This document shows, piece after piece, positions 352-55,114 of a DNA stretch of 64,000 nucleotides. Source of the DNA: Candidatus Omnitrophota bacterium. GTDB lineage: Bacteria; Omnitrophota; Gorgyraeia; B26-G9. The notes below the pieces were generated by a model. That model had not been told where the DNA came from, searched no databases, and saw nothing but the letters and a program-made list of their open reading frames with translations. The stretch lies in the NCBI GenBank assembly GCA_043805415.1, contig JAZDHZ010000027.1:2089-66088 (forward strand). The letters are read 5' to 3'. Position 1 is the first letter of the stretch. Every line of letters begins with the position of its first letter. A program made the position numbers and the translations under genes.

Positions 352-366
352 AATCATAATTCTTTC

Positions 367-8119: not shown

Positions 8120-8230
8120 AAATACTCCATATTTATTTAACCCTCGGTATTTCTTTTAAAAATAGCAGTAAGGATTAGTAAAAGACAGTTCACCCGGTGA
8201 AGATGAACTGTCTTTTATAGATTATTTTAT

Positions 8231-8674
8231 TTACAATGCTGCTTCCTGAATCCAAGCACCGTGTAGATTGCAATATGAAACAACACTTAGGGTTCCTTCT
8301 CTGATTTTTAGATGCAAAGCTGCTGCCGGATTACAGCTTTCCGGAGTAAGCGCAACTCTGGATATAAACTTTTTATTAATATAAAAATCAATGTGGACGA
8401 TATAATGTTCCGCGAGCATAGGATGTTGAATTGCCCCCATTTTCACATGCACATCCTGACACCCTTCAGCAATTAATCCGCATGTTTTAACCACAGTGAT
8501 TAAAGGAATATGCTTTTTCTCCAGATCAGTCAAATTATTAACATTAGCCGGTGTTTTGATCGCGTCTTCTTTTACCACAAAAGCAGAAGCTAATGCCCCG
8601 CATACTGGACATTTTTCCGGAGCAGCTCCATCAATTGAGATAAACCCGCAAACTTTACAAACCATTCCTTTCAT
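8231..8674 (-). CDS. Superoxide reductase (desulfoferrodoxin family) with an N-terminal rubredoxin-like CxxCG...CPxCG knuckle pair
   Basis: EKKHIP (cf. the EKHVP SOR motif), His ligands, and a YCNLHGAW Cys/His iron-ligand motif. N-terminal CKVCG...CPVCG. Shine-Dalgarno AAAGGGGGA upstream. Confidence 0.75.
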   Translation of the reverse strand: MKGMVCKVCGFISIDGAAPEKCPVCGALASAFVVKEDAIKTPANVNNLTDLEKKHIPLITVVKTCGLIAEGCQDVHVKMGAIQHPMLAEHYIVHIDFYINKKFISRVALTPESCNPAAALHLKIREGTLSVVSYCNLHGAWIQEAAL

Positions 8675-8817
8675 AAATCCCCCTTTTTTTGGTGTCTTAG
8701 ATTAAATTACCTATACTTTATAGAATAGCCTTTTTATAATTAATGTCAAGATCAGATTTCCCGCTGAATAAAGCAGTGATTTTCAGTTAAGATTAACCCC
8801 CTTTATCTGACTATTTC

Positions 8818-9090
8818 TCAGACTTTACCTAATAGCATCAATACACCAATAACAATAAAAGATAAAGCGCCCGCATATCGTACATGCTCAGGCTGAATAT
8901 GCTTTGCCAGGACTTTACCCAAGAGTACGGTTATAATCGTCACAAGCGCAAAAGCAAGCACCGAAGCAGTAAAAACTGTAATCCATGATTTAGAACGTGT
9001 TGCCATGCACAAGTTAGCAATTTGCGTTTTGTCGCCAAGTTCTGCTAAAAATATCGCGCTAAATGTCGCAAAAAATATCTTCCAATCCAT
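8818..9090 (-). CDS. UPF0016 (GDT1/TMEM165) family membrane protein, single-repeat form
   Basis: 90 aa, 3 TM helices, E-x-G-D-K-T motif (ELGDKTQ). Confidence 0.7.
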   Translation of the reverse strand: MDWKIFFATFSAIFLAELGDKTQIANLCMATRSKSWITVFTASVLAFALVTIITVLLGKVLAKHIQPEHVRYAGALSFIVIGVLMLLGKV

Positions 9091-9104
9091 ATAATTCTCC
9101 TTAA

Positions 9105-19951: not shown

Positions 19952-20049
19952 TTACCTGTACCCCTGAATATTTTTAATTACCATGGACAGCAAAAATTAT
20001 TATATAACAATTTATCTCTAATTAACCCATCTTTTTTGTTTTGCACTAC

Positions 20050-20424
20050 TTATTTACCAATCATTTTCTCTATTGTCCGCAACAACTCATCAGGTTCAAA
20101 CGGTTTGCGCATAAACCCTTCAGCATTATACTCCTTTGATTTAGAAGACAGATCTTCCGCGCTGCTGGCACTGAGAAATATCACCGGGATTGCGGCAGTC
20201 TGGGGATCATCTTTTAGCTTTTTACAAACTTCAAAGCCATCCATTAAAGGCAGTCTTATATCCAGCAATATAAAATTCGGCAGCTCGCTTTTGGCCATTT
20301 GCCATCCAGCCTGACCATCCGCGGCAGTCAAGACCTCATAACCTGCTTTTCGTAGCCTGAACATGACTACTCTTAGAATGTCCGGTTCATCATCAATAAT
20401 AAGTATTCTTTTTTTTTCACGCAT
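20050..20424 (-). CDS. Single-domain CheY-like response regulator
   Basis: 124 aa. ILIIDDEPD...LDIRLPLMDG...K. Confidence 0.8.
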   Translation of the reverse strand: MREKKRILIIDDEPDILRVVMFRLRKAGYEVLTAADGQAGWQMAKSELPNFILLDIRLPLMDGFEVCKKLKDDPQTAAIPVIFLSASSAEDLSSKSKEYNAEGFMRKPFEPDELLRTIEKMIGK

Positions 20425-20442
20425 AAACTAAGCCCTCTTTAA

Positions 20443-22902
20443 CTAAACCTTTAATATTATATTTATTGTTTTAATCAAATCTTCTGTTTTAAATGGTTTC
20501 GCGATCCAGGGCAAAGCCATATCTTCCGGCAATTTTTGCATCCGGGAAATTTCATCGCCAAATCCTGACATTAATAATACCGGAATATTTTGCGCTGATT
20601 TATCACTTTTCAGCCAGCCGACTAATTCCAAACCATTCATATCCTTAAGTCTGATATCACTAATAACCAAATCGGGTTTTTTCTCTGTGGCCATAAGAAA
20701 TCCTTGCTGCCCTGAAGAAGAAGTAAGAACATTATATCCGGCTTCAGACAGATTAATTCGGCAAAGCTCCAGCAAATCTTCTTCGTCATCAATAATCAGA
20801 ATTGTACATTTTGGGCTAACTGGTAATATAACTTTAAATTCCGTACCCTTGCCATACTCTGATTCAATCAAAACCCTGCCTTTATGCTGTTCAATAATCT
20901 CCTTAGAAATTGCTAAGCCTAGCCCAGTTCCTCCGGTTTTCCGCTGGTTTAAACCGCCCAGCTGCTGAAATTTTTGAAATAATTTAGGCAAATCTTCTTT
21001 TTTAACCCCCATGCCTGTATCTTGCACGGAAATGCTGACGCTGTTTGTTTGCGGTTCATAAGCCGTAGAAACCGTTATTCCGCCGGTATCGGTGAATTTT
21101 ATCGCGTTGCTAAGCAGATTATTCATAACCTGAAGCATCCTGTCCATATCAAAAACAATTAAAGGCAAGTCTGTGCCGGGCCGCTGATTAAGATATAAGC
21201 CTTTATCTCTTGCAACCGGAGTATGAATTTTAATCACTTCAATCACCGCGTCATTAATATCCGCTTTTCGCATTCTAAACTCAAGTTTTTTTGATTCTAA
21301 TTTGGCAAAATCAAGAACATCATCAATCAGTCTTTTTAATCTATCCACATTGCGTTTTGCCATGCCGAGAAATTCCTTCTGATCAGCATTAACCTCGCCA
21401 GCTTCTCCCTCTAGCACAATCGCTATCCCTTCTTTAATCGCGGTTAACGGTGTGCGCAGCTCATGCGAAACCATTGAGGTAAATTCACTTTTTATTTCAT
21501 ACATTTCTCTGATTTTTTTAGCACTCTCTTTTAATGTGTTTTCCGCTTCTTTAATTTCCGTAATATCCTCAAAAACAGCAACCATTCTGGCTAATGAGCC
21601 GGATCCGGGGATAGACGCGGCATTCAGTCTGCAAAGAATTTGTTTTAAATCTTTACATTTACACATAAACTCTATTTCACATTTACCGGTTTTCTCAATA
21701 GCGGAATGAATTACTTCAAAACAAGAATAAGCATCCTCAGCAGAAATAAATAATTTACTAATGTCCCATCCGATAATTTCTTCTGGCATCCATCCAAAAA
21801 CTCTTTCCACCCCATTATTAGCAAAAACAACCTTATCGTCCGCAAGCCCGATTATCGCATGGGGTATTGAATCCATTAAAGCCCGGATCCTTCCTTCACT
21901 CTCAACTAGATTATCTTCAATCAGTTTCCTTTCGCCAATTTCTTCTTCTAATTCTTTATTCACACTATCCAGACTATTCTGCATTGCTTTTCGCTCAATA
22001 ATCTCCTCTTCCAGATTTTTATTAACAATCGAAAGTTCTTGTCCCCTTAGTTTTTCTAAATTCATTAACTCTTCTTCTTTTTTTATAAGCTGATCAATTT
22101 TTTCAATCATTTCATTAAACATTCCCATCAGCAAACCTATTTCATCTTGTGCTTTAGGCTTAAGCCTTACTGTCATATCGCCTTGCGAAACACGGCTTAA
22201 GGCCCGCTCAACAGTCTGAATCGGATGAATAACTATCTTAAACAGCAAAATAATAACCCCGAGGCTGATTAAGATAAGGCCTACCAGTGAAACCATAATA
22301 TTAAGCTTACGCGCTGAATTAATTGACTGCAGTACAGGCTCCCAGTCCAGACTGACGTTTAAAACACCAAGGACATCAAGCTTGGGGCTATGGCATAACA
22401 TACATTCCTTTTCATTCCGAATCGGGATTGCCTCTGTAAAAACTGTTTCTTCTGGCTTGTTCCAGACTTCAATCCCATAAGATTGTGTTGTGGAAACTTT
22501 TTGTTTTGATTTGTTCCCGGATTCAATTCCATAAGATTCTTCACCACGAAATGCCTTGGTAATTAAAGAGGATATTGCTATTTTATCAATCATTTTTAGA
22601 TCAGTGCTTCTTTTTATAATCCCCAGATGATCAAGCAAACTGATTGATTTAATCTCGGATAATTTACTAAGATTATCAAAATGACGTTGGACAACCTCTT
22701 GCTCTCCCTCAAGCATCGGGTAACGGATCCCGGAAAGAATAATCGCTCCTAACTCACTGGCTTCTTTGCGTCCTCGATTAAGCAATATCTCTTTTTGCGC
22801 GGAAAAGTTCATGAAAGTAATCGCAGACAATACTCCGACAAAAATAAGACCAAGGAAAACGATTATTTTCGCACTCAGAGATTTATGGATTTTTCTTAAC
22901 AT
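20443..22902 (-). CDS. Hybrid sensor histidine kinase with periplasmic sensor domain carrying a CxxCH heme-c motif, plus HAMP, coiled coil, PAS, HisKA, HATPase_c and receiver
   Basis: Two TM segments flank a ~170-aa periplasmic region containing CMLCH. SHELRTPL H-box. GTGLGL. C-terminal TILIIDDEED...DIRLKDMNG receiver. 819 aa. Confidence 0.75.
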   Translation of the reverse strand: MLRKIHKSLSAKIIVFLGLIFVGVLSAITFMNFSAQKEILLNRGRKEASELGAIILSGIRYPMLEGEQEVVQRHFDNLSKLSEIKSISLLDHLGIIKRSTDLKMIDKIAISSLITKAFRGEESYGIESGNKSKQKVSTTQSYGIEVWNKPEETVFTEAIPIRNEKECMLCHSPKLDVLGVLNVSLDWEPVLQSINSARKLNIMVSLVGLILISLGVIILLFKIVIHPIQTVERALSRVSQGDMTVRLKPKAQDEIGLLMGMFNEMIEKIDQLIKKEEELMNLEKLRGQELSIVNKNLEEEIIERKAMQNSLDSVNKELEEEIGERKLIEDNLVESEGRIRALMDSIPHAIIGLADDKVVFANNGVERVFGWMPEEIIGWDISKLFISAEDAYSCFEVIHSAIEKTGKCEIEFMCKCKDLKQILCRLNAASIPGSGSLARMVAVFEDITEIKEAENTLKESAKKIREMYEIKSEFTSMVSHELRTPLTAIKEGIAIVLEGEAGEVNADQKEFLGMAKRNVDRLKRLIDDVLDFAKLESKKLEFRMRKADINDAVIEVIKIHTPVARDKGLYLNQRPGTDLPLIVFDMDRMLQVMNNLLSNAIKFTDTGGITVSTAYEPQTNSVSISVQDTGMGVKKEDLPKLFQKFQQLGGLNQRKTGGTGLGLAISKEIIEQHKGRVLIESEYGKGTEFKVILPVSPKCTILIIDDEEDLLELCRINLSEAGYNVLTSSSGQQGFLMATEKKPDLVISDIRLKDMNGLELVGWLKSDKSAQNIPVLLMSGFGDEISRMQKLPEDMALPWIAKPFKTEDLIKTINIILKV

Positions 22903-31780: not shown

Positions 31781-33085
31781 CTATTTTCTTGTTTTAAAAC
31801 TATGTCCAAATCCCTGCGAAATGGTTCTGCCTAAAGATATTGTCATTGCCGCTGCCCCGCCGTGGCAATCTCCAGGCTGCTCTTTAATACATATCTTATC
31901 CGGGTATATCCGGTAATGTTCTCGATATTGCTGGGGAGTTAAATTAGGCATAATCACATTTGCCCCGCAGCATAATACCTTTTGCCTTCCCTGCGGATCG
32001 ATTGAGCCGACAGCTGTTGTTGCCGGAATATGCGTATTTCTGGTTAGAATCCGCACCAAGGCAATAACTTTGCGCATCATCTCTATTGTGCCTTTTTCCG
32101 CCGCGTTCAATGGGGTTTCCGGATTAGGAATAAACGGGCCGAGCCCAATCATATCCAGATCAAGCTCAAGCATTAAAAGTATATCCTCTGCAAGAATCTC
32201 CTTGGTTTGCCCAGGCAATCCAACCATACAGCCAGATCCCACCTGAAAACCAAGTTGTTTTAAATCTTTTAAACATTGAATTCTGGTTTGATAATCAGAA
32301 TCTGGTTTTAATTTCCTAAATAACTGTTCATTTGAGGTCTCAAAACGCAGCAAATAGCGGTCAGCACCTGCCTGCCGCAGTTTTTTATACTCAGAAAAAG
32401 ACCGCTCTCCTAAGGATAGAGTAATCGCACAACTCGTCTGCTGTTTAATTTCTTTAATTATCTGGCAAAGCTGCTCAATACTATAAGCATTATCTTCGCC
32501 TGACTGTAAAACAATTGTTTGGTAATTAAGCGCAACCGCTGATTTGGTAATATCTACTATTTCATTGCTCGACAATCTATATCTATTAATCTCTTTATTA
32601 TCTTTTCTTAATCCGCAATAAAGACAATTCCTTCCGCAATAATTAGAAAACTCAATTAAGCCTCTTAAATGGATATCATCTCCGCAGTAAAGCTTGCGCA
32701 GAGCATCAGCAAAATTAACCAGAATCTGTTCTGGATGGGTTTTAAGAAAATAGATTATATTCTGTTTTAAACTCCGGCGTGTTTTGGGCCAAATAAGCTG
32801 ATATAATGATTCTACGTCTTTCTGCTGCTTATGTGTTAACTTGCTATAGCCGTATATAATAATGCCGTGCGCAGCATCAAGTTCTATGCGCTGCGCATCA
32901 AACATACGCTGATTACTAATAGCTTGGCCAGAAACAAATTCTTGCCTATTCCCTTTAATATTAATAAGATGCACATTTACCGGATATATCTGCTCAACGC
33001 ATTTAGTTAAAACCCCTAACTCGCTAAGAGCTATATCCTGATCTATTTTTTTCGCTGGATTAGAAGTAAAGATCTCGTTCGCCAT
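31781..33085 (-). CDS. hydE: [FeFe]-hydrogenase maturase HydE (radical SAM), with an extra ~85-aa N-terminal extension
   Basis: LRGLIEFSNYCGRNCLYCGLRKDN radical SAM motif in biotin-synthase-like context. 434 aa versus the usual ~350. Confidence 0.8.
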   Translation of the reverse strand: MANEIFTSNPAKKIDQDIALSELGVLTKCVEQIYPVNVHLINIKGNRQEFVSGQAISNQRMFDAQRIELDAAHGIIIYGYSKLTHKQQKDVESLYQLIWPKTRRSLKQNIIYFLKTHPEQILVNFADALRKLYCGDDIHLRGLIEFSNYCGRNCLYCGLRKDNKEINRYRLSSNEIVDITKSAVALNYQTIVLQSGEDNAYSIEQLCQIIKEIKQQTSCAITLSLGERSFSEYKKLRQAGADRYLLRFETSNEQLFRKLKPDSDYQTRIQCLKDLKQLGFQVGSGCMVGLPGQTKEILAEDILLMLELDLDMIGLGPFIPNPETPLNAAEKGTIEMMRKVIALVRILTRNTHIPATTAVGSIDPQGRQKVLCCGANVIMPNLTPQQYREHYRIYPDKICIKEQPGDCHGGAAAMTISLGRTISQGFGHSFKTRK

Positions 33086-34568
33086 TTTTCACCCGGTTAT
33101 AATATTCCATAAACTGCTCAAATACTTTGGGCAGTGTTTTCTTTATTTCCCCAATCTCTTTTTCAATTATCTCTTCGGATTTAAGCTTTGTCTGTTCCGA
33201 AGCAAAATCATCAACCCATTCGCGAAACGTTAAAACCGCGTTAAGCTTGCAGAACTTCCCTTCTTTTCCGCTGCGCAGCATATCCATAATACACTCGCCG
33301 GTACGGCCGCAGCGGTAGCCGGCTGTACAAAAAGAAGTAATATATCCCATCTCAATATATTCATTAATCAGTTCTTCCAGACTGCGCGTGTCGCCTAAAA
33401 TAAACTGCTGTCTTTGACCTTGCTGCTGTTTAGTCTCATCGCCGTATGCGCCGATAGCTATTTTGGTCGAAGCATCGGTTTGGGTAATGCCCAAAGCAAT
33501 TGCCTGTTTTCGGATATCGGCATTTTCCCTGGCAGTAATAATCAGTCCGGTGTGCGGTACTGCCAATCTTAAAACAGTTATAATTTTTTTAAAATCAGCA
33601 TCAGAAACTTTATATTTTAAATTCTGCGTAAGCGGAGTATTATCCGCTGGCTCAATCCGCGGAAAAGAAATTGTATGCGCTCCGATGCCAAAGTTTTTTT
33701 CCAGCTCCTGATTATGCGTGATTAATCCCATTACCTCAAACTTCCAATCATATAATCCGAATAATACCCCTAATCCCACATCATCAATTCCCGCTTCCAT
33801 GGCGCGGTGCATAACATAAAGCCGCCAGTTATAATTGCTTTTAAGCGTATTTTCCGGATGTACTTTTCTATAAGTATCCTGATGATAGGTTTCCTGAAAA
33901 ACCTGGTAAGTGCCAATTCCCGTGTCATGCAGACGCCTTAATTCCTCGATTGAAAGCGGCGCGGCATTCACATTTACTCTTCTTATCTGACCAATACCTT
34001 TTGCGGTTTTTTCTTTTATCCCGTATATGGTTTTAACTGACTCAACCATATAATCAATACCCGTGCTTGGATGCTCGCCATAAACAACAACCAAACGTTT
34101 GTGCCCGATTTTGCCGCAAAGAACTCGAACTTCTTTTTCAATCTCCGCTAAGGAAAGTATTTTTCTTTGGGTTGCATGATTATCTTCTCTAAACGCACAG
34201 TAAAGACAATTATTTACACAAGCATTGCCTAGATACAAAGGCGCAAAAGTAACAATCCGATTATCATAAACTTTCTTTTTAACTTTTAAAGCCGTCTCCC
34301 GCATAAGCTGCCACAACTGAGGATCGCTTACATTTAAAAGACAAGCTGCTTCTTCGGCACTAAGCGTTTTAATCTGCAAAGATTTTTCCAGAATATTTAA
34401 TACTAATTGCTTATCCGGATTTTTTGCTTGGCTAAGAATGGCATCGATATTGTCCTGATCAATGAAGTTTTTAGTATCAGCTAAATATTTATCTATCTGT
34501 TCGTTTTTTATCCGCTGTTTAATCCAGTTTTCCAGTTCATTGGTTTTTAGTTTCATTAGATCCTCCAC
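33060..34568 (-). CDS. hydG: [FeFe]-hydrogenase maturase HydG (radical SAM tyrosine lyase)
   Basis: CVNNCLYCAF N-terminal cluster plus C-terminal auxiliary Cys cluster CTAGYRCGRTGEC. 502 aa. Confidence 0.85.
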   Translation of the reverse strand: MEDLMKLKTNELENWIKQRIKNEQIDKYLADTKNFIDQDNIDAILSQAKNPDKQLVLNILEKSLQIKTLSAEEAACLLNVSDPQLWQLMRETALKVKKKVYDNRIVTFAPLYLGNACVNNCLYCAFREDNHATQRKILSLAEIEKEVRVLCGKIGHKRLVVVYGEHPSTGIDYMVESVKTIYGIKEKTAKGIGQIRRVNVNAAPLSIEELRRLHDTGIGTYQVFQETYHQDTYRKVHPENTLKSNYNWRLYVMHRAMEAGIDDVGLGVLFGLYDWKFEVMGLITHNQELEKNFGIGAHTISFPRIEPADNTPLTQNLKYKVSDADFKKIITVLRLAVPHTGLIITARENADIRKQAIALGITQTDASTKIAIGAYGDETKQQQGQRQQFILGDTRSLEELINEYIEMGYITSFCTAGYRCGRTGECIMDMLRSGKEGKFCKLNAVLTFREWVDDFASEQTKLKSEEIIEKEIGEIKKTLPKVFEQFMEYYNRVKNGERDLYF

Positions 34569-35817
34569 TCAATAATAATTTTTCGGCTTTTTTATATGCC
34601 TCAAGCGCTGCGGGAAACGGGCTTAGTACCCTTTCAATCACACCCTGTAATTTCGCGATACATACTCCATAATTGCTAATCGCTACTCCTGCCTGTTCTG
34701 CTTGCTGTATCCGGCTAAGCATGGCGCGGCGATTAATCATGCAGCCGCCGCAATGAATAATCAGTTTATATTCCGCTAAATTATCCGGATAATCACTGCC
34801 GCGGCAAGTATCGAATTTAATTGCTGCCCCGGTATACTGCCGAAACCAGCGGGGGATTTTAACTCTAGCGATATCATCTTCAATCGGATGATGCGAACAG
34901 CTCTCAGCAATCAAAACTTTATCCTTAGATTTAAGGGTATCAATTACAGCGGCTGCTTGCGCTGCCTTAATCAGATCACCTTTAAATCTTGAAAATAAAA
35001 TTGAAAAAGTCGTACATTTAACATCCGCCGGAGTATCGGCAACCATCTTTAACACCACTTGAGAATCACAGATCACAATATCCGGTTTTCTCACTATATT
35101 TTCAATAACATGCGCGTATTCTCTTTCTTTAACCACAATGCTTATCGCGTCATTATCCAAAACTTCTCTGATTGTCTGAACCTGAGGGAGAATTAAGCGG
35201 CCTTTGGGTGCCTGCAGATCAATCGGCACTATCAGCACTGCGCAGCCTGCTGCCGGAATAAGATCACTGATAAGATCCGGCGGCTTTAAAAAATCCTCAG
35301 GACAAATATCAATCAGCAGTTTTTTAAACCGATTAAGCGTTTGCTCCTGGTTATCCGAATCAATGCTTGAGCAAATCAATATCTGTTTAGAAAAACCTTT
35401 AATCTGCTCAAGATATCCCTCTTCGGGATTATTCATATCAGCTTTATTAATAACCACAATCAGCGGGATCTTTTCCTGTTCTGCTCTTTGGGCAACCAAG
35501 ATTTCATAATCCTGCCAGGTTCCGGCTTCAACAATAAGCACAACCACATCCGCTTTTTTAAACACCGCGTATGTTTTTTTAAGCCGCATTTCCGAAAGCG
35601 CTGAGGCATCATCAATTCCCGCTGTATCTAAAAATACCACCGGACCTAAAGGCAATAGCTCCATTGTTTTTTCCACTACATCAGTTGTTGTGCCGGCAAT
35701 CGGAGAAGTTATTGCCACATCCTGCAAGCTGATATAATTAAGAAACGTGGATTTTCCCACATTCATCCTGCCGAACAGGCCGATATGCAGGCGTAGTGAT
35801 TTAGGCGCCTTATTCAT
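34537..35817 (-). CDS. hydF: [FeFe]-hydrogenase maturation GTPase HydF
   Basis: GRMNVGKSTFLN P-loop. C-terminal CxH...HCxxC FeS-binding region (ESCSHHP...HCGGC). ATG at 35817 sits 5 nt after the aspA-like stop. Confidence 0.85.
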   Translation of the reverse strand: MNKAPKSLRLHIGLFGRMNVGKSTFLNYISLQDVAITSPIAGTTTDVVEKTMELLPLGPVVFLDTAGIDDASALSEMRLKKTYAVFKKADVVVLIVEAGTWQDYEILVAQRAEQEKIPLIVVINKADMNNPEEGYLEQIKGFSKQILICSSIDSDNQEQTLNRFKKLLIDICPEDFLKPPDLISDLIPAAGCAVLIVPIDLQAPKGRLILPQVQTIREVLDNDAISIVVKEREYAHVIENIVRKPDIVICDSQVVLKMVADTPADVKCTTFSILFSRFKGDLIKAAQAAAVIDTLKSKDKVLIAESCSHHPIEDDIARVKIPRWFRQYTGAAIKFDTCRGSDYPDNLAEYKLIIHCGGCMINRRAMLSRIQQAEQAGVAISNYGVCIAKLQGVIERVLSPFPAALEAYKKAEKLLLSGGSNETKNQ

Positions 35818-37198
35818 CTTGTTTATACCCCAATGATACGATATTAGCCGGATCAAGCACTTTGTTTACTAAATCTTTACCCAGTTTCTGGCTTAAAAAA
35901 TCGTTTAAGCTTATCTTTTTGTTTTCCGGGATTTGAGAAAATTCCTGAACTAATTCCGTGGCTTTTTCATATCCCAGATAAGGCAAAAAAGCCGTGATTA
36001 AACCCGGACTTTTATTTAAATTTTCTTGGCATTTTGCTGGTTTAGCCTTTATCAGCAGCACATGTTTTGTCAGTATTTTATTGGCATTTAACAATACATC
36101 CAATGATTCAAGCATCGCGTAAGCTAAAAGCGGCATAAATTCATTTATCTGCAAAGTGCTTCGGCTTACTGCCTCGGTTATCAGAAAATCATTCGCCAGG
36201 ACTTTTATCCCTGCCTGGATTATCGCTTCCATAATTACCGGATTGATTTTTCCCGGCATAATTGATGAGCCAGCCTGCACTGCAGGCAATTCTATTTCTT
36301 CAAATAAATGCAGTAACCGCAGATCTTGGCAGATTTTAATCAGATTCTGAGCATGGGCTTTAATAATTCCAGAGGTTTCCCCAAAAGCATCACTATTGGC
36401 CGTACTATCAATCAGATTCTCAGCCCGGCAGATCCCCAAATTGCTGAGCTGTCTCAGTTTTTCAATTACTAAAAAAATATAATCTCTAGGAGCAGTAAGT
36501 CCGGTCCCCACCGCTGTGCCACCGATATTAACCGTGCGGATACGTTCCTGAGCTTTAAACATTCTCCACCTATCCCGTCCAAAAGCCTCGGCAAAGCCGG
36601 AAAATTCCAAACCCAAGGTAATCGGCACAGCATCCTGCAGCTCTGTCCTGGCAATTTTTACAATATGGCTAAATTCTTTTTCTTTTGCCTGAAAAGCGCC
36701 TTGGAGTTTAGCGATCTCCGCGCTTAATAAATTTAACTTGTAAATCACCGCGATTTTTAAAGCCGTGGGATAAACATCATTTGTTGACTGATGTTTATTA
36801 ACATCTTCAATCGGATGGATCAGAGTATAATCTCCTTTATCTCCCCCCATTTTCTCAATCGCGATATTGGCAATGACTTCATTAATATTCATATTTGTGG
36901 AAGTGCCTGCGCCGCCTTGCAAAGCATCAACAATAAACTGATCATCATGTAAACCAGCATTAATCGCATCACATGCTTGACAGATTGAATCAGCCTTGGC
37001 CTGTTCCAGATAACCCAACTCAGCATTGGCCAGGGCACAGGCTTTTTTAACCAACCCTAAAGCGTGAATCAGCGAAATATTTATTCTACTTCCCGTTATC
37101 GGGAAATTCTCCCAAGCTCTTTGTGTATGAATGCCCCAGTAGGCGTCTTGGCTAACTTCTTTTTGCCCTAAAAGGTCTGATTCCATCCGGTTTTCCAT
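35810..37198 (-). CDS. Aspartate ammonia-lyase / class II fumarase family enzyme (hyd-cluster-associated AspA-like)
   Basis: GSSIMPGKINPV signature loop. 462 aa. Confidence 0.8.
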   Translation of the reverse strand: MENRMESDLLGQKEVSQDAYWGIHTQRAWENFPITGSRINISLIHALGLVKKACALANAELGYLEQAKADSICQACDAINAGLHDDQFIVDALQGGAGTSTNMNINEVIANIAIEKMGGDKGDYTLIHPIEDVNKHQSTNDVYPTALKIAVIYKLNLLSAEIAKLQGAFQAKEKEFSHIVKIARTELQDAVPITLGLEFSGFAEAFGRDRWRMFKAQERIRTVNIGGTAVGTGLTAPRDYIFLVIEKLRQLSNLGICRAENLIDSTANSDAFGETSGIIKAHAQNLIKICQDLRLLHLFEEIELPAVQAGSSIMPGKINPVIMEAIIQAGIKVLANDFLITEAVSRSTLQINEFMPLLAYAMLESLDVLLNANKILTKHVLLIKAKPAKCQENLNKSPGLITAFLPYLGYEKATELVQEFSQIPENKKISLNDFLSQKLGKDLVNKVLDPANIVSLGYKQDE

Positions 37199-39147: not shown

Positions 39148-39630
39148 TTATTTTAGCATATTTCTTCGAATAATTTCTACTATTTCATCTGCTGTTTTTT
39201 TAATTTCCCCTGACAGCCCTTCACCAAAACAAACTGATTTTGGCTGAATTCCGATAAAAAACACTCTAGTTTTTATGCTTTGGCAGATAATCCCGGTGAT
39301 AACATTCAAAGGAATCGCGTGAGTACTCAAAGTTGTTTGCGGAATTTTATCTTCGGGAATTATCCTGACCTCGCCGGGGTTACCGCCCCAATCAGCCGCG
39401 TCGATAATTAATATCTTTTTCGGTCCAAGGCTAATAACTTCTTCAATAATATTTTCCGGAGTATACCCGGCATTAATTACCTTTAACCCGATTATTTTTT
39501 CAAGTTCGCCAGCAATATAAGGCCCTACTCCATCATCAAATCTAAAAGAATTCCCGACAGCAACAATAAGGTCACTGTCGGGATTAAGCTTAAGCAACTC
39601 AATAATATTACCGGTCAATGTATTTGACAT
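39148..39630 (-). CDS. [NiFe] hydrogenase maturation endopeptidase (HycI/HoxW/FrhD family)
   Basis: LIVAVGNSFRFDDGVGPYIAGEL motif. Start is taken as the internal Met at 39630. The ORF track start is 39666. Confidence 0.75.
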   Translation of the reverse strand: MSNTLTGNIIELLKLNPDSDLIVAVGNSFRFDDGVGPYIAGELEKIIGLKVINAGYTPENIIEEVISLGPKKILIIDAADWGGNPGEVRIIPEDKIPQTTLSTHAIPLNVITGIICQSIKTRVFFIGIQPKSVCFGEGLSGEIKKTADEIVEIIRRNMLK

Positions 39631-40933
39631 TAAGAAAATGCGCTGAACAGGAAATGCAAGGATCATAGGCTCGAACCAGCATTTCCATCAGCAAAGTTAT
39701 TTCCTCTTGTTTTTTATCCAAGACTTCCGGAACAAGTTTTTTCATATCGCATTCAATATTATTAAGGTTTTGTCCTGTAGGAATAATACAGTTGGCGTTT
39801 ATAATCTTACCCTTAGCGTCCACCTCATATTCATGAAACAGTATCCCGCGGGGAACTTCTACCGCGCCAACGCCTTTTCCCGCCTTAACTGGTATCTGGC
39901 CGTTTTCATTTAAACCCACAGTTATTGCCTGTGAATAATCAATCCCCTCATTCTTAAAATCTTTAAGTATTTTAATCGAATCCTCAAGACTATGGATACA
40001 TTCAATAAGCTGGGCAGCGGTATTCAAGAAGGGGTTTGTTGTGATTGGCTTTAAACCAATAGCTTTAGCTACTTTTTTTGCTTTAGGGTGAAGCTTATTA
40101 AAATTAAGATTCACTCTGGCCAAAGCTCCGACCATATAAGATTCGCGGCTGGCTTTGGTATGCTTTGCCGAAGAATGCGGCACCACAAATTCATTGGTAA
40201 TTTTTTTATAATCATGCTTATCCATACGCAAGCCGTCTGTTGAGCCGATATCTCCTTGTAAAAGCGGATACTCATCAGTGTCATTTACCAAACCAACATA
40301 CTCTGTCTCTCTTTGAAATTCCGGGAATTTAAGACTTGCTGCCAGTTCAATAGTCGGAGTCATATCCACCTGAATGCTTTTTAAGATCTCAAGCATGGCA
40401 TCAAGATCCTTTTCCTTCGGCAGTTTTGTAAAACCGCCGACAATCGCGGAAATCGGATGAACATGCCGGCCGACTAAAATATCACAAACATCATTGCAGG
40501 CTTTTTTCATTCTTAAGGCACGCCTGACAACATCATTATGTGTATGAATTAACGGCACAAAACTCTTTACGCCAAGAAGATCAGGAGCTACCAGCAGATA
40601 AATATGCAAAATATGACTATCAAGATTTTCCAAATGCAGCAGCAGTTTCCGCAGTTTAATTGTCTGCTCAGTAGGAATAAAGCCGATCGCGTCCTCAGCA
40701 GCCTGGATCGATGCCAAAGTATGGCCGCAGGCGCAAATCCCGCAAATCCGGCTGGTAATATGCTGCGCTTCAAAAATTGACCGGCCGCGGAGCATACCTT
40801 CAAAAAACCGGGGGGATTCAACAATATCCAAACGGCATTCTTCAAGTTTGCCATTTTTCACATTTACCACAATATTCCCATGGCCTTCTACCCGGGTCAG
40901 ATACTCAACATTTACTTTTACATTTTTACTCAT
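39608..40933 (-). CDS. [NiFe] hydrogenase large (alpha) subunit, group 3b sulfhydrogenase type
   Basis: N-terminal RICGICACGH and C-terminal DPCISCSAH Ni-Fe ligand motifs. 441 aa. Confidence 0.9.
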   Translation of the reverse strand: MSKNVKVNVEYLTRVEGHGNIVVNVKNGKLEECRLDIVESPRFFEGMLRGRSIFEAQHITSRICGICACGHTLASIQAAEDAIGFIPTEQTIKLRKLLLHLENLDSHILHIYLLVAPDLLGVKSFVPLIHTHNDVVRRALRMKKACNDVCDILVGRHVHPISAIVGGFTKLPKEKDLDAMLEILKSIQVDMTPTIELAASLKFPEFQRETEYVGLVNDTDEYPLLQGDIGSTDGLRMDKHDYKKITNEFVVPHSSAKHTKASRESYMVGALARVNLNFNKLHPKAKKVAKAIGLKPITTNPFLNTAAQLIECIHSLEDSIKILKDFKNEGIDYSQAITVGLNENGQIPVKAGKGVGAVEVPRGILFHEYEVDAKGKIINANCIIPTGQNLNNIECDMKKLVPEVLDKKQEEITLLMEMLVRAYDPCISCSAHFLNVKYIDR

Positions 40934-41681
40934 CAGTTTTCAACTCCCCTAACTCACGCGGTTTGTTGTACATGTTAATTTTATTTTCAATCCAATCCAG
41001 AGAAATATTGTATTTTTCTAAAATATCTTTCTGCCCTTTTTCCGCCGGATTACTCACAATTCCCCGACAGCCATAACAGATATTGCCGTTATTTATACAC
41101 CAGGAATTACATCCCGCGCGGGTAATCGGCCCCATACAGGAGATTCCTTTATCATACATACACTCATTTTCATTAAGCTTACATTCCACGCAAACCGCGT
41201 TATCCGGAACATTATAAGCAATTCCCATTAGCGCTGCTTTTAAAACCTTAACAAATTCCGGAATATAAACCGGACAGCCGGGAACAAAATAATCTACCGG
41301 AACTACCTGATGCACTGCTCGGGTGGGCATAGTATCAAAATATTTCGCGTCTTGTTTATACACATATTCCCGAATGTCTTTTAAGTCAAAATTGTTTTTC
41401 ATTCCATTGATCCCGCCGATAGCAGCGCAAGACCCGTAAGCAATCAATACTTTCGCGGTTTTTCTAATCTTTTTAATTCTTTCCACTCCATGCGGGGTAG
41501 TAATACTGCCTTCAACAATCGCCACATCATAGCTATTTGATTTTTCCGACATTACTTCTCGGAATTCCACAACATCAATAAGATCTAAAACATCCAATAA
41601 TGTCTCGCCCATATTCGCGATTTGCAGCTGACAGCCTTCACAACAGGTAAAATCAAAAAACGCAACTTTAACTTTTTTCAT
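40926..41681 (-). CDS. [NiFe] hydrogenase small (delta) subunit
   Basis: CEGC proximal-cluster motif near the N-terminus (FDFTCCEGCQLQ). Further Cys clusters. 251 aa. Confidence 0.85.
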   Translation of the reverse strand: MKKVKVAFFDFTCCEGCQLQIANMGETLLDVLDLIDVVEFREVMSEKSNSYDVAIVEGSITTPHGVERIKKIRKTAKVLIAYGSCAAIGGINGMKNNFDLKDIREYVYKQDAKYFDTMPTRAVHQVVPVDYFVPGCPVYIPEFVKVLKAALMGIAYNVPDNAVCVECKLNENECMYDKGISCMGPITRAGCNSWCINNGNICYGCRGIVSNPAEKGQKDILEKYNISLDWIENKINMYNKPRELGELKTDE

Positions 41682-41683
41682 AA

Positions 41684-42523
41684 TTATAATGCCTCGTGTT
41701 TTCCTTTTATCTGGTCATAACTATACACTGGGCCATCCTGACAGCAATAATGTTCGCCAATTTGACAATGCCCGCATTTACCCACTCCGCATTTCATATG
41801 CCGCTCTAAAGATAAAAGTATCTGTCTTTCCGGTATGTTCTTTTTTAGTAATTCGGCAATCACAAATTTATACATTATCGGAGGCCCGACAACAATCGCG
41901 AAGGTTCGCGCTATGTCCAGAGTTACTCCGGGGATTAATGAAGTAATTAAACCAACATTGCCTTTCCAATCAGGATCCGATCTATCCACTGTACATTGGA
42001 AATTCACATCAAGCCGTTTTTCCCATTCTTTTACTTCATCTCCGAAAAGCATGTCTTTGGGAGTTTTACAGCCAAGCAAAATATTTACTTTGCCATAGTC
42101 GCGGCGATTATCAATAACAAAATTAATCAATGATCTCAACGGAACAATACCCAGCCCACCGGCAACAAACAATAAGTCATTACCCTCTAGGATATTAGTC
42201 GGAAAACCATGGCCAAAAGGCCCCCGGATCCCGACAATATCACCGGCATCAAGTTTATGCAGCGCTTTGGTTAAAATCCCGGTATTTCTTACTACAATCT
42301 CAAATGAACTTCTTTTTGTAGTCGGTGAAGATGATACAGAAATCGGCGCTTCACCAATGCCTGGAATTGAAATCATCACAAACTGGCCCGGCTCATGATC
42401 CAGGACTTCACTTCCGGCAAGAGAAATCTCAAAAAATTTTTCCAGAGCAGTCATTTTTTTGGCACGAATGATAGTTCCCTTTTTTACAATATACTCTGAT
42501 TCTTTAAGCGGTACTTGTATCAT
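41684..42523 (-). CDS. Sulfhydrogenase gamma-like subunit (FAD/NAD(P)-binding, C-terminal 2Fe-2S)
   Basis: Ferredoxin-NADP reductase fold with C-terminal CGVGKCGHC. ATG at 42523 overlaps the beta-subunit TGA (ATGA). Confidence 0.8.
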   Translation of the reverse strand: MIQVPLKESEYIVKKGTIIRAKKMTALEKFFEISLAGSEVLDHEPGQFVMISIPGIGEAPISVSSSPTTKRSSFEIVVRNTGILTKALHKLDAGDIVGIRGPFGHGFPTNILEGNDLLFVAGGLGIVPLRSLINFVIDNRRDYGKVNILLGCKTPKDMLFGDEVKEWEKRLDVNFQCTVDRSDPDWKGNVGLITSLIPGVTLDIARTFAIVVGPPIMYKFVIAELLKKNIPERQILLSLERHMKCGVGKCGHCQIGEHYCCQDGPVYSYDQIKGKHEAL

Positions 42524-43554
42524 TTTTTTTCCTTTGCTAAAGCATTGACGGTTTCTTTTAATTTTATCTGGGCCATGCATGTTCTGGTACATCTGCCGCA
42601 GCCCGTACAAAAATAGCGGCTGAATTTATCCACCGGATAATTGAACTTTCGCATATATCTATGCTTCTGACGATCAGCGCGTTCTTCTCTGAAACTCTCG
42701 CCGCCGGCAATCTTGGCGAAATCTTCATTCTGACATGAATCCCAAACTCTCACTCGGCTGCCGGTATTAAAATCAAGGTTCATATCATCCTTGATATCAA
42801 AACAATAACAGGTAGGACAGACATTCGTACAATTTCCGCAGGAAATACAGCGAGAACCAACATCATCCCATACCTTACTATTCATTGACTGTTCGAAAAC
42901 AAGTTTTAAATCACTATGCTTTACATCCAGTTCATTCTTAAATATATCTCTTTTTGCCACGCGCAAAGCTTCCAGCTCTTTTAAATTTTCCTCTTTAGCT
43001 TTGCTAAAAAGACTTATTTCTTCTATAATTTTTTCACCCATTTGCGTATTTACATGGATAATAAAATTGTCTTTTAGTTCGCTAAAGAATAAATCATAGC
43101 CCCCGTTGGGAATATGATTATCCATCGCGGTACAGCTGGCATATTCATCGCAATAAGAATTACACTCAAACCCGATTATCGTGATTTTATCTTTTCTTAC
43201 TATATAATTAATATCTTTGGGCTTACTGGTAAAAACCATATTCAGACATTGGATGCCCGCTAAATCACAAGTATGCACGCCAAAAATTATCATTTCCTTA
43301 TATTCAAGTACTGGAGTCCATTTATGTTCAGATTTATTAAATTTCATAATTGTTTCTTGCTGCGGCATAAAATATTTTTTCGGAGGCAAAATCGTGGGGA
43401 TAGAGTGCAAAGCTATTTCTTCGCCGGTTGTTACTTCTTGAAAAGCGAAACTTTTTTCTCCCCTTTTAACCGGAGCAACAACAGATTGGATCAGGGCAAG
43501 TTTTGCCACAAAATCATTAAAATCTTTCTTTTTCAATACAACATATTTTTCCAT
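42520..43554 (-). CDS. Sulfhydrogenase beta-like subunit (multiple [4Fe-4S])
   Basis: CISCGNCTNVCPTC and CTGCGRCTRTC ferredoxin motifs. 344 aa. Confidence 0.8.
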   Translation of the reverse strand: MEKYVVLKKKDFNDFVAKLALIQSVVAPVKRGEKSFAFQEVTTGEEIALHSIPTILPPKKYFMPQQETIMKFNKSEHKWTPVLEYKEMIIFGVHTCDLAGIQCLNMVFTSKPKDINYIVRKDKITIIGFECNSYCDEYASCTAMDNHIPNGGYDLFFSELKDNFIIHVNTQMGEKIIEEISLFSKAKEENLKELEALRVAKRDIFKNELDVKHSDLKLVFEQSMNSKVWDDVGSRCISCGNCTNVCPTCYCFDIKDDMNLDFNTGSRVRVWDSCQNEDFAKIAGGESFREERADRQKHRYMRKFNYPVDKFSRYFCTGCGRCTRTCMAQIKLKETVNALAKEKK

Positions 43555-51807: not shown

Positions 51808-51842
51808 GAAAAACCAGCAAATACTATTTTCTTGCTGGTTTT
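51808..51842 (-). terminator. Rho-independent terminator after the carboxynorspermidine dehydrogenase gene
   Basis: AAACCAGCAA / TTGCTGGTTT 10-bp stem with T-run on the minus strand. ACCAGCAA is repeated three times locally. Confidence 0.5.
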
Positions 51843-51874: not shown

Positions 51875-53122
51875 TTATCTAACTCTCTTACTCTCTGGTA
51901 AGGGGCGAGGATTTTCATCAATAATTGTCGGTAATCCGAGCTTATTCAGAATCCCTATAAAGCAATCAGGCTCAAGCTGTTCAACATTAGCCATTTTTTT
52001 AACATCCCAATCTCCTTTTACTACAAGCATCGCTGCTGCCACTGGTGGTACCCCTGCTGTATAACAAATAGCTTGCGACTCAACTTCTTTATAACATTCC
52101 GCGTGATCACAAGTATTATAGATGAAAATTTCTCTGGGCTTGCCCTGCTTTGTGCCTTTAATATAATTGCCGATACATGTCTTGCCTGTATAGTTTTTCG
52201 CCAGGGATAAAGGATCCGGCAATATGGCTTTAATCACTTTTAAAGGAACAACCTCCACGCCTTCTGCTGTTTTTATCGGCTTTTCTGAAGTCAAACCAAG
52301 GTTTGTCAGCACTGAGAAAACATTTATATAATGATCGCTAAATCCCATCCAGAAACGTATACTGTTAGCATCAATAAACTTAGACAAAGAGTGCAATTCA
52401 TCATGCCCGTTTAAATAAACCGGCTGTTTACCGGCAACAGGGAAATCATATTCCATTTTTATAGAATGAACTTTTTCTTCAACCCATTTGCGATCAATCC
52501 AAGTCCACACCTTTTTAAATTCGCGAAAATTAATTTCCGGATCAAAATTAGTGGCAAAATACTTGCCATGATTGCCGGCATTTACATCCATAATGTCAAT
52601 TGTATCAATTTTATCAAAATAATGCTTTACGGCTAAGGCACAATACGCGTTTACCACTCCGGGGTCAAATCCCGCGCCTAATATGGCAGTAATCCCCTTT
52701 TGGTCACAAATTTCTTTACGCTTCCATTCATAATTAGCATACCATGGCGGATTTTCACAAACCTTGTCTGGATCTTCATGGATAGCGGTATCAATATAAG
52801 CCGCGCCGGTTTCAATGCAAGCTTGAAGTAATGACATATTTACATATGATTGCGCCAGGTTTATTACTATCTGGGAATTAGTATCTTTAATCAGTTTTAC
52901 TGCCGCGGGAATATCTAAAGCATTCAACTGTTTGGAATAGAGTTTTTTAGTTGTATCTTTTAAATGCTTTTTTCTTATAACGCTTTCAATTATTTCATCA
53001 CATTTACTTTGCGTTCGGGAAGCTATGCAAATATCTCCTAAAATATCATTATTTTGCGCACATTTATGAGCAGCAACATGCGCGACTCCGCCAGCGCCTA
53101 CAATAAGTACATTCTTTTTCAT
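51875..53122 (-). CDS. Carboxynorspermidine/carboxyspermidine dehydrogenase (saccharopine dehydrogenase-like)
   Basis: LIVGAGGVAHVAAHK Rossmann motif. CANSDH-like length of 415 aa. Confidence 0.8.
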   Translation of the reverse strand: MKKNVLIVGAGGVAHVAAHKCAQNNDILGDICIASRTQSKCDEIIESVIRKKHLKDTTKKLYSKQLNALDIPAAVKLIKDTNSQIVINLAQSYVNMSLLQACIETGAAYIDTAIHEDPDKVCENPPWYANYEWKRKEICDQKGITAILGAGFDPGVVNAYCALAVKHYFDKIDTIDIMDVNAGNHGKYFATNFDPEINFREFKKVWTWIDRKWVEEKVHSIKMEYDFPVAGKQPVYLNGHDELHSLSKFIDANSIRFWMGFSDHYINVFSVLTNLGLTSEKPIKTAEGVEVVPLKVIKAILPDPLSLAKNYTGKTCIGNYIKGTKQGKPREIFIYNTCDHAECYKEVESQAICYTAGVPPVAAAMLVVKGDWDVKKMANVEQLEPDCFIGILNKLGLPTIIDENPRPLPESKRVR

Positions 53123-53154
53123 TTATTCTGTTCTCCTACTTATTTAGGGGTTAA

Positions 53155-54264
53155 TTAAGACAAACTATTAACAAAATCTTCATATCCAAACCTATGGACT
53201 AAATCCATTGATCCATTAAGTCTTTTTACAACAATTCCCGGCATTTGCAGACCATTAAACCAATTTTTTTTAACCATGGTATATCCGGCCGCATCAGCAA
53301 ATTTAATAATACTGCCTACTTTTAACTTTTGGGAAAAACCAAAAGACCCGAATATGTCTCCAGCTAAGCAAGAACGGCCAGCAATCACATATTTATAATT
53401 CTGATTAACCTGAGGGTCAATTTTCGCGCTAATCCGGTAAACCAATAAATCGAGCATGTGCGCTTCAATCGAAGCATCGACTATGGCAATATCCTTTTTA
53501 TTATGCACAATATCAAGAACAGTTGTCACCAACTGCGCGGCTTGGGTAATCGCGCTTTCGCCTGGCTCTAAATAAACCTGAATTTTAAAACGCTGACTAA
53601 ACTGTTTTAATTTTTCCGCGAATTTCACCACCGGATAGTCAGGCTTAGTAAAGTAAAATCCGCCTCCCAAACTCACCCAATTAACTGTTTCTAATAATTT
53701 AGCGTATTTACGGCTAAGATAATCTATATTTAAGCAAAAATTAGCAAAATTATCATTTTCACAGTTAAAATGAAACATTACTCCGCTAAGCAAATGGCTG
53801 ATTTCCCGCAGAGAACTTTTTCTGATTACTCCCAGCCGGGAATATTTACGCGCAGGATCAGCCAGATCAAAATGAGAATAACTGATTTGCGGATTCACTC
53901 TTATGCCCAATTGCACTTTATTCGTATATCTGGCAAATTTTTTTAATTGGGATATTGAATTAAAAATAATTTTATCAGCAAATTTGCTTACTTGTTCAAT
54001 ATCTTCCTTTGAATATGCTACAGCATAGGAATGAACTTCTTTGCCAAATTTTTCATAACCCAGACGAGCCTCATACAAAGAACTTGAGGTTGTCCCATCC
54101 ATATACTGCCGCATTAGATTAAAAACACTCCAGGTTGAAAAGCATTTTAGAGCTAGTACTGATTTCACACCAGAAATATCTTTAATCCGTTTGATAATTT
54201 TCAGATTTCTGAGTAATATTTTTTCGTCAATTAGATAATAAGGGGTTTTAAATTTCATTGACAT
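53155..54264 (-). CDS. nspC: Carboxynorspermidine/carboxyspermidine decarboxylase (NspC-like, PLP fold III)
   Basis: MSMKFKTPYYLIDEKILLRNLKIIK..LALKCF typical NspC N-terminus. 369 aa. Confidence 0.8.
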   Translation of the reverse strand: MSMKFKTPYYLIDEKILLRNLKIIKRIKDISGVKSVLALKCFSTWSVFNLMRQYMDGTTSSSLYEARLGYEKFGKEVHSYAVAYSKEDIEQVSKFADKIIFNSISQLKKFARYTNKVQLGIRVNPQISYSHFDLADPARKYSRLGVIRKSSLREISHLLSGVMFHFNCENDNFANFCLNIDYLSRKYAKLLETVNWVSLGGGFYFTKPDYPVVKFAEKLKQFSQRFKIQVYLEPGESAITQAAQLVTTVLDIVHNKKDIAIVDASIEAHMLDLLVYRISAKIDPQVNQNYKYVIAGRSCLAGDIFGSFGFSQKLKVGSIIKFADAAGYTMVKKNWFNGLQMPGIVVKRLNGSMDLVHRFGYEDFVNSLS

Positions 54265-54402
54265 ATTTTATCACAAAACCGATAAGTTGAAAAGTAATAA
54301 AACCCCACTACTAGACTCATTATTTATTCTTAAGTCCAGACTAAGTAAAAAAAACAGCAGAAATTTTCTGCTGTTTTTAAATATTTGAGTAAGTATATTG
54401 TT

Positions 54403-54771
54403 TCAACGCGTAAGAAAACGCGATTTTATTCTTTTTGCCCCAAAGAACTCTTTTGTGAATTTCTTCGCGAGAGTTTGGTCATATGTTGTACATGAGAAGA
54501 TATTGATATAAGCAGTTTTCCAATGATCCGAAAAATGACCGGTAATCGAGCTTGTTTCAATAAGCTGAACCAATGAAAAACCTCTGGTAAACTCTTCTCT
54601 TTCCCCAAAATAAGGGATAAGTGTTTTGCCGAATTGTTTCATCTTAATAAGATTGCATAGCTTATCAGCATATTCCTGCAGCTTTTTCTTAGAAGTAATA
54701 ACTTCGACATCACACTCAAACAAATCCAACACCAGCTCATAGCCATATATCTTTTTATCTTTTTTCTTCAT
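54403..54771 (-). CDS. Class 1a S-adenosylmethionine decarboxylase-like (SpeH-fold) pyruvoyl proenzyme homolog
   Basis: 122 aa. ELVLDLFECD...IETSSITGHFSDHW resembles the SpeH self-cleavage region (E-S-S). Confidence 0.65.
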   Translation of the reverse strand: MKKKDKKIYGYELVLDLFECDVEVITSKKKLQEYADKLCNLIKMKQFGKTLIPYFGEREEFTRGFSLVQLIETSSITGHFSDHWKTAYINIFSCTTYDQTLAKKFTKEFFGAKRIKSRFLTR

Positions 54772-55114
54772 TCCGGTGTTATCCTTACCTTGTTAGGGAT
54801 GGCCAAAGCAATCAAGTCAATCCACTTGTTAAAGCAATTTTACCAAATTGCGCTCCTTTTGCTTTTACGGCTGTCCTTTTTGTTAATTTACTGTCAATTA
54901 TTCTAAATCAATTTTATACAAAAATCTTAGTTTTTTCAACAAAAATATTTTTTTCTTTTTTAGTCGAACCAAAAACCCTAAGTGAAAAATAATATACAAT
55001 ACGCTCAAGCAAAAATCAAGTAAAAAAATAAAATAAATACGAATCTTGCTATTGCTTGAAATCTCCGGCTCGCTGAGATATAAACGCAAACAGATTAATA
55101 CAGTGAATGCTGAC

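Follow-up and report, generated by a model that had tools for sequence, protein, structure and literature searches.

A three-gene locus of Candidatus Omnitrophota predicted to make spermidine from ornithine without S-adenosylmethionine

Introduction

What reaction does a protein of the S-adenosylmethionine decarboxylase (AdoMetDC) fold catalyze when its gene lies beside those of a polyamine route that needs no decarboxylated S-adenosylmethionine (AdoMet)? The question is raised by a 64,000-nucleotide stretch of a Candidatus Omnitrophota genome (hereafter the window, meaning the whole 64-kb stretch analyzed), in which the gene for a 122-residue protein of this fold, here called speDC, is found together with genes for a carboxyspermidine dehydrogenase (CASDH) and a carboxyspermidine decarboxylase (CASDC). 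That the CASDH/CASDC route dispenses with decarboxylated AdoMet was the premise of the initial annotation of this locus; the point is established and is restated in PMC10407285 and PMC10599626. The annotation went on to propose that the small protein is an arginine or ornithine decarboxylase that supplies the diamine. AdoMetDC homologues neofunctionalized into pyruvoyl-dependent L-ornithine (SpeDC) and L-arginine (SpeDA) decarboxylases have been described (Li, Liang, Phillips, Michael, J Biol Chem 2023, PMC10407285). Here we report that the locus very probably encodes three enzymes that together convert L-ornithine to spermidine without using AdoMet.

The three co-oriented genes that had been described are open reading frames (ORFs) with precisely the boundaries first assigned to them, and all lie on the minus strand:

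54403..54771, minus strand: speDC, 122 aa, predicted L-ornithine decarboxylase, a class 1b AdoMetDC-fold pyruvoyl proenzyme
53155..54264, minus strand: casdc (nspC), 369 aa, pyridoxal phosphate (PLP)-dependent carboxyspermidine/carboxynorspermidine decarboxylase, identified by TIGR01047 and Protein Data Bank (PDB) matches
51875..53122, minus strand: casdh, 415 aa, NADPH-dependent carboxyspermidine dehydrogenase, predicted from its Sacchrp_dh domains and residues I114/W127/D241

Results

The 122-residue protein retains the AdoMetDC processing residues but is not a canonical AdoMetDC

The protein matches the AdoMet_dc family of Pfam (PF02675) with 58.1 bits and an E value of 1.3e-15 over residues 13-122. 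In contrast, it scores only 24.5 bits against TIGR03330, the class 1b AdoMetDC equivalog, for which the cut-off is 75.65; two of its orthologues score 23-27 bits, whereas the control, a canonical SpeD paralogue encoded in a related genome (locus L024), scores 132.6 bits. In a search of the PDB with the 122-residue protein, Thermotoga maritima AdoMetDC was only a marginal match (E ~0.1), and that structure served for residue mapping rather than as a guide to function. End-to-end alignment with the T. maritima enzyme (1TLU) places S63, H68 and C83 of the latter opposite S74, H79 and C94 of the window protein. These three aligned residues, which are invariant in 81/81 sequences (the window protein plus 80 orthologues), indicate that the self-processing and catalytic machinery is intact. 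Cleavage is predicted between T73 and S74, the codon of S74 being 54552..54550.

The same alignment shows where the protein departs from the class 1b SpeD/SpeH enzymes (T. maritima 1TLU and the Bacillus subtilis type), with which it shares fold, predicted N-terminal pyruvoyl self-processing and the aligned Ser/His/Cys residues at about 24-27% identity. The ES and HTWPE motifs of true AdoMetDCs are not present. The glutamate that precedes the pyruvoyl serine (E62 of 1TLU) is T73, giving T73-S74, and HTWPE is replaced by HFSD(H), the proline being lost from what is now H79-F-S-D82. We examined these columns in an alignment that combined the window protein and its 80 orthologues with 27 SpeD paralogues encoded in the same genomes as orthologues, with T. 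maritima SpeD and with both domains of the Ca. Omnitrophica OLB16 fusion protein KXK35843, the sequence of the last being taken from the optical character recognition text of a supplementary figure of PMC10407285. All 27 paralogues keep the glutamate before the serine and the HTWPE proline, as do the T. maritima enzyme and the N-terminal domain of OLB16. The failure on TIGR03330, the Glu to Thr change and the missing proline bear out the suggestion of the initial annotation that this small SpeH-like protein is not a true AdoMetDC. In relatives (about 30 loci), the gene co-occurs with one for a separate, true SpeD.

The protein carries the residues diagnostic of SpeDC ornithine decarboxylases

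SpeDC enzymes are separated from AdoMetDCs and from the arginine decarboxylases of this fold by Gln, Thr, Phe and Tyr residues in the central region of the protein (PMC10407285, Fig. 8). We assigned these positions from the order of the residues given in the text of that paper together with the OLB16 alignment, and not from its figure. The window protein carries all four, as Q69, T73, F80 and Y88; they are invariant in the window protein and its orthologues (81/81) and are common to the ornithine decarboxylase (ODC) domain of OLB16. The true SpeD sequences of the alignment (the 27 co-resident paralogues, the T. maritima enzyme and the N-terminal domain of OLB16) have A/G/V, E, T/S and A in these four columns. 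In a neighbor-joining tree, built without bootstrap and with one assayed ODC sequence, the window protein groups with the OLB16 ODC domain, and the SpeD of T. maritima, the SpeD domain of OLB16 and the SpeD paralogues of Omnitrophota lie outside its clade.

Several members of the family have been assayed (PMC10407285). The C-terminal domain of the OLB16 fusion is specific for ornithine. The proteins of Ca. Velamenicoccus archaeovorus LiM (WP_128700171), an omnitrophote, and of Ca. Electrothrix aarhusiensis (RWX43081) did not rescue an E. coli strain deleted for speD and were active on ornithine, but not on arginine or lysine. The window protein shares with this family its fold and size (~120 aa), the Ser/His/Cys triad and the Q/T/F/Y residues. 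Two of the assayed examples come from the same phylum, and the speDC-casdc-casdh gene order of the window has already been reported for Ca. Electrothrix aarhusiensis (PMC10407285). The window clade differs from the described family in that a conserved terminator hairpin parts speDC from casdc. Taken on these sequence features, the 122-residue protein is most likely a pyruvoyl L-ornithine decarboxylase of the published SpeDC kind. Of the two activities that had been proposed for it, the Q/T/F/Y residues favor ornithine decarboxylation and speak against arginine decarboxylation.

The neighboring dehydrogenase has the signature of a putrescine-using CASDH

The 369-residue protein exceeds the cut-off of the TIGR01047 nspC model (425.7 bits versus 409.05). 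Its best structural match is 3MT1 (E 2.3e-132, residues 6-369 aligned), with further PDB matches to 9EAF and 3N29. The 415-residue protein belongs to the saccharopine dehydrogenase family, with 105 bits to PF03435 (Sacchrp_dh_NADP) and 101 bits to PF16653 (Sacchrp_dh_C), and matches the solved proteins 4INA, 4RL6, 8DEB and 8H4Z at E values of 1e-93 to 1e-105 (316-356 bits).

It is reportedly the dehydrogenase of such pairs, not the decarboxylase, that sets substrate specificity (J Biol Chem 2025, PMC11999265), and three residues distinguish the known types (PMC10599626). These are N104/F113/E228 in carboxyaminopropylagmatine dehydrogenase (CAPADH), I113/W126/D241 in the CASDH of Agrobacterium tumefaciens and V112/E125/D240 in the carboxynorspermidine dehydrogenase (CANSDH) of Vibrio. 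The window dehydrogenase has I114/W127/D241, with the 13-residue spacing found in the A. tumefaciens enzyme, a comparison that uses the residues and numbering given in PMC10599626 rather than an alignment. It also has a 4-residue insertion typical of CASDHs that use putrescine. In all 30 Omnitrophota orthologues the three positions are occupied by I or V, by W and by D. At the aligned positions, 4INA, 4RL6, 8DEB and 8H4Z all have N, F and E; two of them come from Streptococcus pneumoniae (4RL6) and Helicobacter pylori (8H4Z), the enzymes of which were assayed as agmatine-preferring (PMC10599626).

Given the I114/W127/D241 signature, putrescine is the probable diamine substrate and spermidine the probable product. 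The initial annotation had allowed for either spermidine or norspermidine; spermidine made from putrescine agrees with the signature, and norspermidine does not. Note that some Agrobacterium-type CASDHs extend spermidine to spermine or thermospermine; the window enzyme might likewise make carboxyspermine or carboxythermospermine (PMC11999265).

The locus resembles the CASDH/CASDC route of A. tumefaciens in the I/W/D residues and their identical spacing, in a CASDC that passes the nspC cut-off and in an ornithine decarboxylase as the source of putrescine. It differs in the kind of that last enzyme, which is predicted to be a pyruvoyl SpeDC here and is a PLP-dependent ODC of the alanine racemase fold there. 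Homologues of CASDH and CASDC also act in the carboxyaminopropylagmatine (CAPA) pathway, where they use agmatine supplied by an arginine decarboxylase and where a ureohydrolase completes the synthesis (Sci Adv 2023, PMC10599626). The dehydrogenases and decarboxylases of the CAPA organisms (Synechocystis, S. pneumoniae 4RL6, H. pylori 8H4Z) are homologous to those of the window and show similar overall similarity. However, the window has I/W/D rather than N/F/E, it lacks a ureohydrolase gene in its 64 kb and its AdoMetDC-fold protein lacks an arginine decarboxylase signature. A correlation has been reported between ornithine decarboxylase and the carboxyspermidine route, and between arginine decarboxylase and the N1-aminopropylagmatine route (PMC11999265).

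Two independent residue signatures, borne by two different proteins, SpeDC and CASDH, therefore concur on a route that would run from ornithine to putrescine, carboxyspermidine and spermidine. In this scheme the 122-residue SpeDC proenzyme would cleave itself between T73 and S74, converting S74 to the pyruvoyl cofactor, and the processed enzyme would decarboxylate L-ornithine to putrescine. CASDH would then condense putrescine with aspartate beta-semialdehyde at the expense of NADPH to give carboxyspermidine, which the PLP enzyme CASDC would decarboxylate to spermidine. The proposal that the locus holds a complete, compact polyamine pathway built on a substitution within the AdoMetDC fold is supported and can be sharpened to the ornithine/putrescine route.

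The window was searched for genes of competing or complementary routes. Pfam scans covered its main ORFs of at least ~110 aa. They found no spermidine synthase or second AdoMetDC, and no arginase-fold protein (PF00491), agmatine deiminase or other ornithine or arginine decarboxylase in the 64 kb. Likewise, tblastn searches of the window with Omnitrophota SpeD and SpeE queries gave no match, and no diaminobutyrate aminotransferase or decarboxylase genes were found in it.

Related loci pair speDC with either of two spermidine modules

A scan of one genome per species returned 231 stretches that encode relatives of the 122-residue protein, and the counts of gene context given here cover the best 80 loci (64-97% identity). 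Nearly all 80 are labeled as metagenome-assembled genomes (MAGs) of Omnitrophota or other members of the PVC group; one is labeled Methanosarcinales. The speDC orthologue adjoins genes for CASDC and CASDH in about 30 of the 80 loci and speD plus speE in about another 30. This recurrence argues that the arrangement is not due to chance. The window order, speDC-casdc-casdh, was found in 9 loci, all of them among the closest relatives (at least 78% identity), and the order casdc-casdh-speDC in 21. In a third class of about 30 loci the order is speD-speE-speDC with overlapping genes, speDC often overlapping speE; the remaining loci are truncated contigs or have a lone speDC.

The speD of the third class scores 121.9 bits against Pfam AdoMet_dc, and the speE passes the spermidine synthase equivalog. 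With a canonical speD beside it, speDC is not the AdoMetDC of those loci. In many loci the casdc-casdh-speDC and speD-speE-speDC clusters occupy one and the same chromosomal site, which is bounded on one side by a divergent major facilitator superfamily (MFS) transporter gene with rnf genes and on the other by a block of radical SAM, RodA and PBP2 genes. Examples at about locus position 10000 are L023, L033 and L041 (casdc-casdh-speDC) versus L024, L056 and L071 (speD-speE-speDC). One spermidine module has replaced the other beside a constant speDC, and the simplest role for a gene that stays while either module is swapped is to make their common substrate, putrescine. Beyond this housekeeping synteny (MFS, Rnf, radical SAM, RodA, PBP2), no other neighbor family recurs with the cluster among these loci. 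The presence of speE is weaker evidence against an SpeDC role than the initial annotation had assumed, since speD, speE and speDC are next to one another in many related genomes.

Some individual loci depart from this pattern. Locus L059 has both spermidine modules within 10 kb and on opposite strands, as casdh-casdc (283-2721, minus strand) and speD-speE-speDC (8791-10357). A second speDC copy, 66-72% identical, is present at L027:7528-7887 and L068:9995-10366, in MAGs that also contain a window-type cluster (JAHITY with L002 and JAGLQQ with L005, respectively). These copies adjoin a NifU-like gene, are unlinked to polyamine genes and may be true paralogues or products of mixed bins; the genome of the window might also hold such a copy. 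In L008 a 577-aa ORF directly downstream of casdh and on the opposite strand contains a spermidine synthase-like segment (8192-8806, minus strand), which shares 29% identity with Omnitrophota SpeE across 214 aa.

The three genes probably form two transcription units

Three candidate transcription signals accompany the genes:

54911..54939, minus strand: candidate sigma-70-like promoter of speDC, TTGAAA-17-TAAAAT, 10/12 matches to consensus
54350..54378, minus strand: intrinsic-terminator-like hairpin with a 13-bp stem and a U-run in the speDC/casdc spacer, -15 kcal/mol, z -4.5
51808..51839, minus strand: terminator-like hairpin with a U-run after casdh, found by reading the sequence, -17.5 kcal/mol, z -4.7

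The candidate promoter would give speDC a 5' leader of ~130 nt, and a predicted terminator follows cspA. The hairpin of the speDC/casdc spacer lies directly 3' of the speDC stop codon. A stem of ACAGCAG/CTGCTGT with variable loops is found right after speDC in 11/11 loci of the window gene order (L001-L008, L010, L011 and L013, some of which were assigned that order from upstream synteny) and in 0/69 of the others. The spacer around this stem varies from 74 to 514 nt among the 11 loci. The stem is unique in the window, where none is expected by chance. The hairpin after casdh is not in the list returned by the terminator scan, possibly because its loop exceeds the 8-nt limit of the scan.

Since a conserved terminator hairpin follows speDC, two transcription units are probable. 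The three-gene unit of the initial annotation is supported as a complete pathway, although probably not as a single unit of transcription. The transcripts that we infer are probably speDC alone and casdc-casdh, perhaps coupled by partial read-through. The expected layout would be speDC, for the low-turnover decarboxylase, with its own promoter and a casdc-casdh pair that is either a separate unit or coupled to it through read-through. The hairpin could also serve as a regulated attenuator, or as an element of RNA processing or stability, and so fix how much SpeDC is made relative to CASDC/CASDH, possibly in response to polyamines, an idea that we regard as rather unlikely. If it were true, control by the hairpin and the swap of speD-speE for casdc-casdh would together give an account of how spermidine synthesis is rewired and tuned in Omnitrophota.

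No RNA family was found when the whole window was scanned with Rfam at gathering thresholds, and no known riboswitch or leader lies near the cluster. A conserved structured 5' leader of speDC was considered and rejected: the sequence is common to a small subclade only, and its weak consensus fold has -5.3 kcal/mol and 2 covarying pairs. Nothing is conserved upstream of speDC in the remaining gene-order classes.

Three further features of the noncoding sequence may be recorded. The candidate speDC promoter resembles CTTGCAAAAT-N-TTTAATAT, a motif that is found again upstream of speDC, or of the gene preceding it, in L005-L010, L013, L017, L026, L036, L052 and L058 and that may be a consensus strong promoter of the phylum. 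In a subclade of the window-type loci (L005, L006, L008 and L010), the region between cspA and speDC contains a short ORF, ~150-250 nt upstream of speDC. This ORF has a Shine-Dalgarno-like sequence (MNKKYKEKYCSKNCLIKYAVALLKICKRETG...), appears to be conserved as protein and is absent from the window, L001 and L002. Positions 54265-54293 of the window (minus strand) contain an extended -10-like match (TG, then TAAAAT) that ends at the casdc ATG, with no obvious Shine-Dalgarno sequence; casdc may start at its second ATG (M3) on a leaderless transcript or one with a very short leader.

Discussion

The reading given above has to be weighed against three others. In one of them the 122-residue protein would be an SpeDA-like arginine decarboxylase and its neighbors would be CAPADH and the cognate decarboxylase (CAPADC), acting through carboxyaminopropylagmatine and N1-aminopropylagmatine with an aminopropylagmatine ureohydrolase (APAUH) encoded elsewhere. 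AdoMetDC-fold arginine decarboxylases do exist, one phage enzyme within the SpeDC clade among them, CAPADH/CAPADC pairs are widespread and are annotated like CASDH/CASDC, and the solved dehydrogenases nearest to that of the window carry the CAPADH-type N/F/E. However, the window dehydrogenase and 30/30 of its orthologues are of the I/V-W-D type, with the 4-residue CASDH insertion, and all four ODC-diagnostic residues are present in the 122-residue protein. Moreover, no arginase-fold gene was found in the window, only housekeeping synteny recurs around the cluster and, in the literature, CASDH goes together with ornithine decarboxylase and CAPADH with arginine decarboxylase (PMC11999265). We consider arginine as the starting substrate quite unlikely.

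The prospect that the protein is a divergent but genuine AdoMetDC, with speE outside the window and CASDH/CASDC as a second, independent route, agrees with its public annotation and its PF02675 match; L059 does have both routes, and our check for speE covered the 64-kb window. Against this stand the TIGR03330 score far below that of a true paralogue, the replacement of the AdoMetDC-invariant Glu and the WPE proline by T73 and D82, the separate canonical speD beside the orthologue in ~30 related loci and the inability of assayed clade members to complement the E. coli speD deletion (PMC10407285), which together make this prospect extremely unlikely. We give as little credence to a route that turns 1,3-diaminopropane into norspermidine, as in Vibrio, with the 122-residue enzyme acting on a substrate such as L-2,4-diaminobutyrate. 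The NCBIfam names of the neighboring proteins are carboxynorspermidine synthase and decarboxylase, and CASDH-family enzymes can take several diamines (PMC10599626). However, the window dehydrogenase has W127 where Vibrio CANSDH (V112/E125/D240) has Glu, the window contains no diaminobutyrate aminotransferase or decarboxylase gene, orthologues of the 122-residue protein also pair with speD-speE, a route that requires putrescine, and assayed clade members were specific for ornithine among Arg, Orn and Lys (PMC10407285).

Several observations nonetheless weigh against the ornithine to spermidine route. Overall identity between the window protein and the ODC domain of OLB16, the sole assayed sequence with which it was aligned directly, is only 35%. 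The phage enzyme that lies inside the SpeDC clade has arginine decarboxylase activity (PMC10407285), and the SpeDC motif is not an absolute predictor of ornithine use, given that enzyme. The 415-residue protein scores 482.8 bits over its full length against the carboxynorspermidine synthase model NF043000, its best NCBIfam match, under the equivalog cut-off of 800; by sequence it is a clear homologue but of a divergent lineage. Genes for SpeE, SpeB or a second SpeDC may be encoded outside the window. Finally, the promoter and the terminators are assigned only by consensus match and predicted folding. The sequence shows the identities of the genes, their motifs, their conservation and their context, from which the substrate, the product and the makeup of the transcripts are inferred.

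The SpeDC idea was already published in 2023, for this phylum and for this gene order. Its novelty here is low, and the locus reveals no new enzyme type and no new pathway. What the comparison adds to the published biochemistry is that the same orthologue group serves either an AdoMet-dependent or an aspartate semialdehyde-dependent module, often at the same chromosomal site. It also exposes a systematic misannotation: the window protein and many of its named relatives are labeled S-adenosylmethionine decarboxylase in public databases, including an identical 122-residue protein already on record from a contig of 137,655 bp in a Candidatus Omnitrophota MAG. With that label, metabolic reconstructions of Omnitrophota would infer an AdoMet-dependent step that does not exist and would miss the source of putrescine.

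Other genes of the window

The gene content of the window is otherwise that of an ordinary chromosome, with genes for RecQ, glutamate dehydrogenase, two-component systems, the glycine cleavage system, hydrogenase and its maturases, phosphofructokinase, Dus and CspA. At 15147-17261 (minus strand) is a type II/IV secretion ATPase (T2SSE plus MshEN) with a C-terminal response-regulator receiver domain, situated in a block (17258-22902) that encodes histidine kinases and receiver proteins. In the regions 31781-35856 and 39148-43554 (minus strand), radical SAM genes and a gene for a HydF GTPase, which fit [FeFe]-hydrogenase maturation, lie a few kb from a NiFe-hydrogenase-like cluster with genes for the large and small subunits, for FAD/NAD-binding and ferredoxin-like subunits and for a HycI-type protease.

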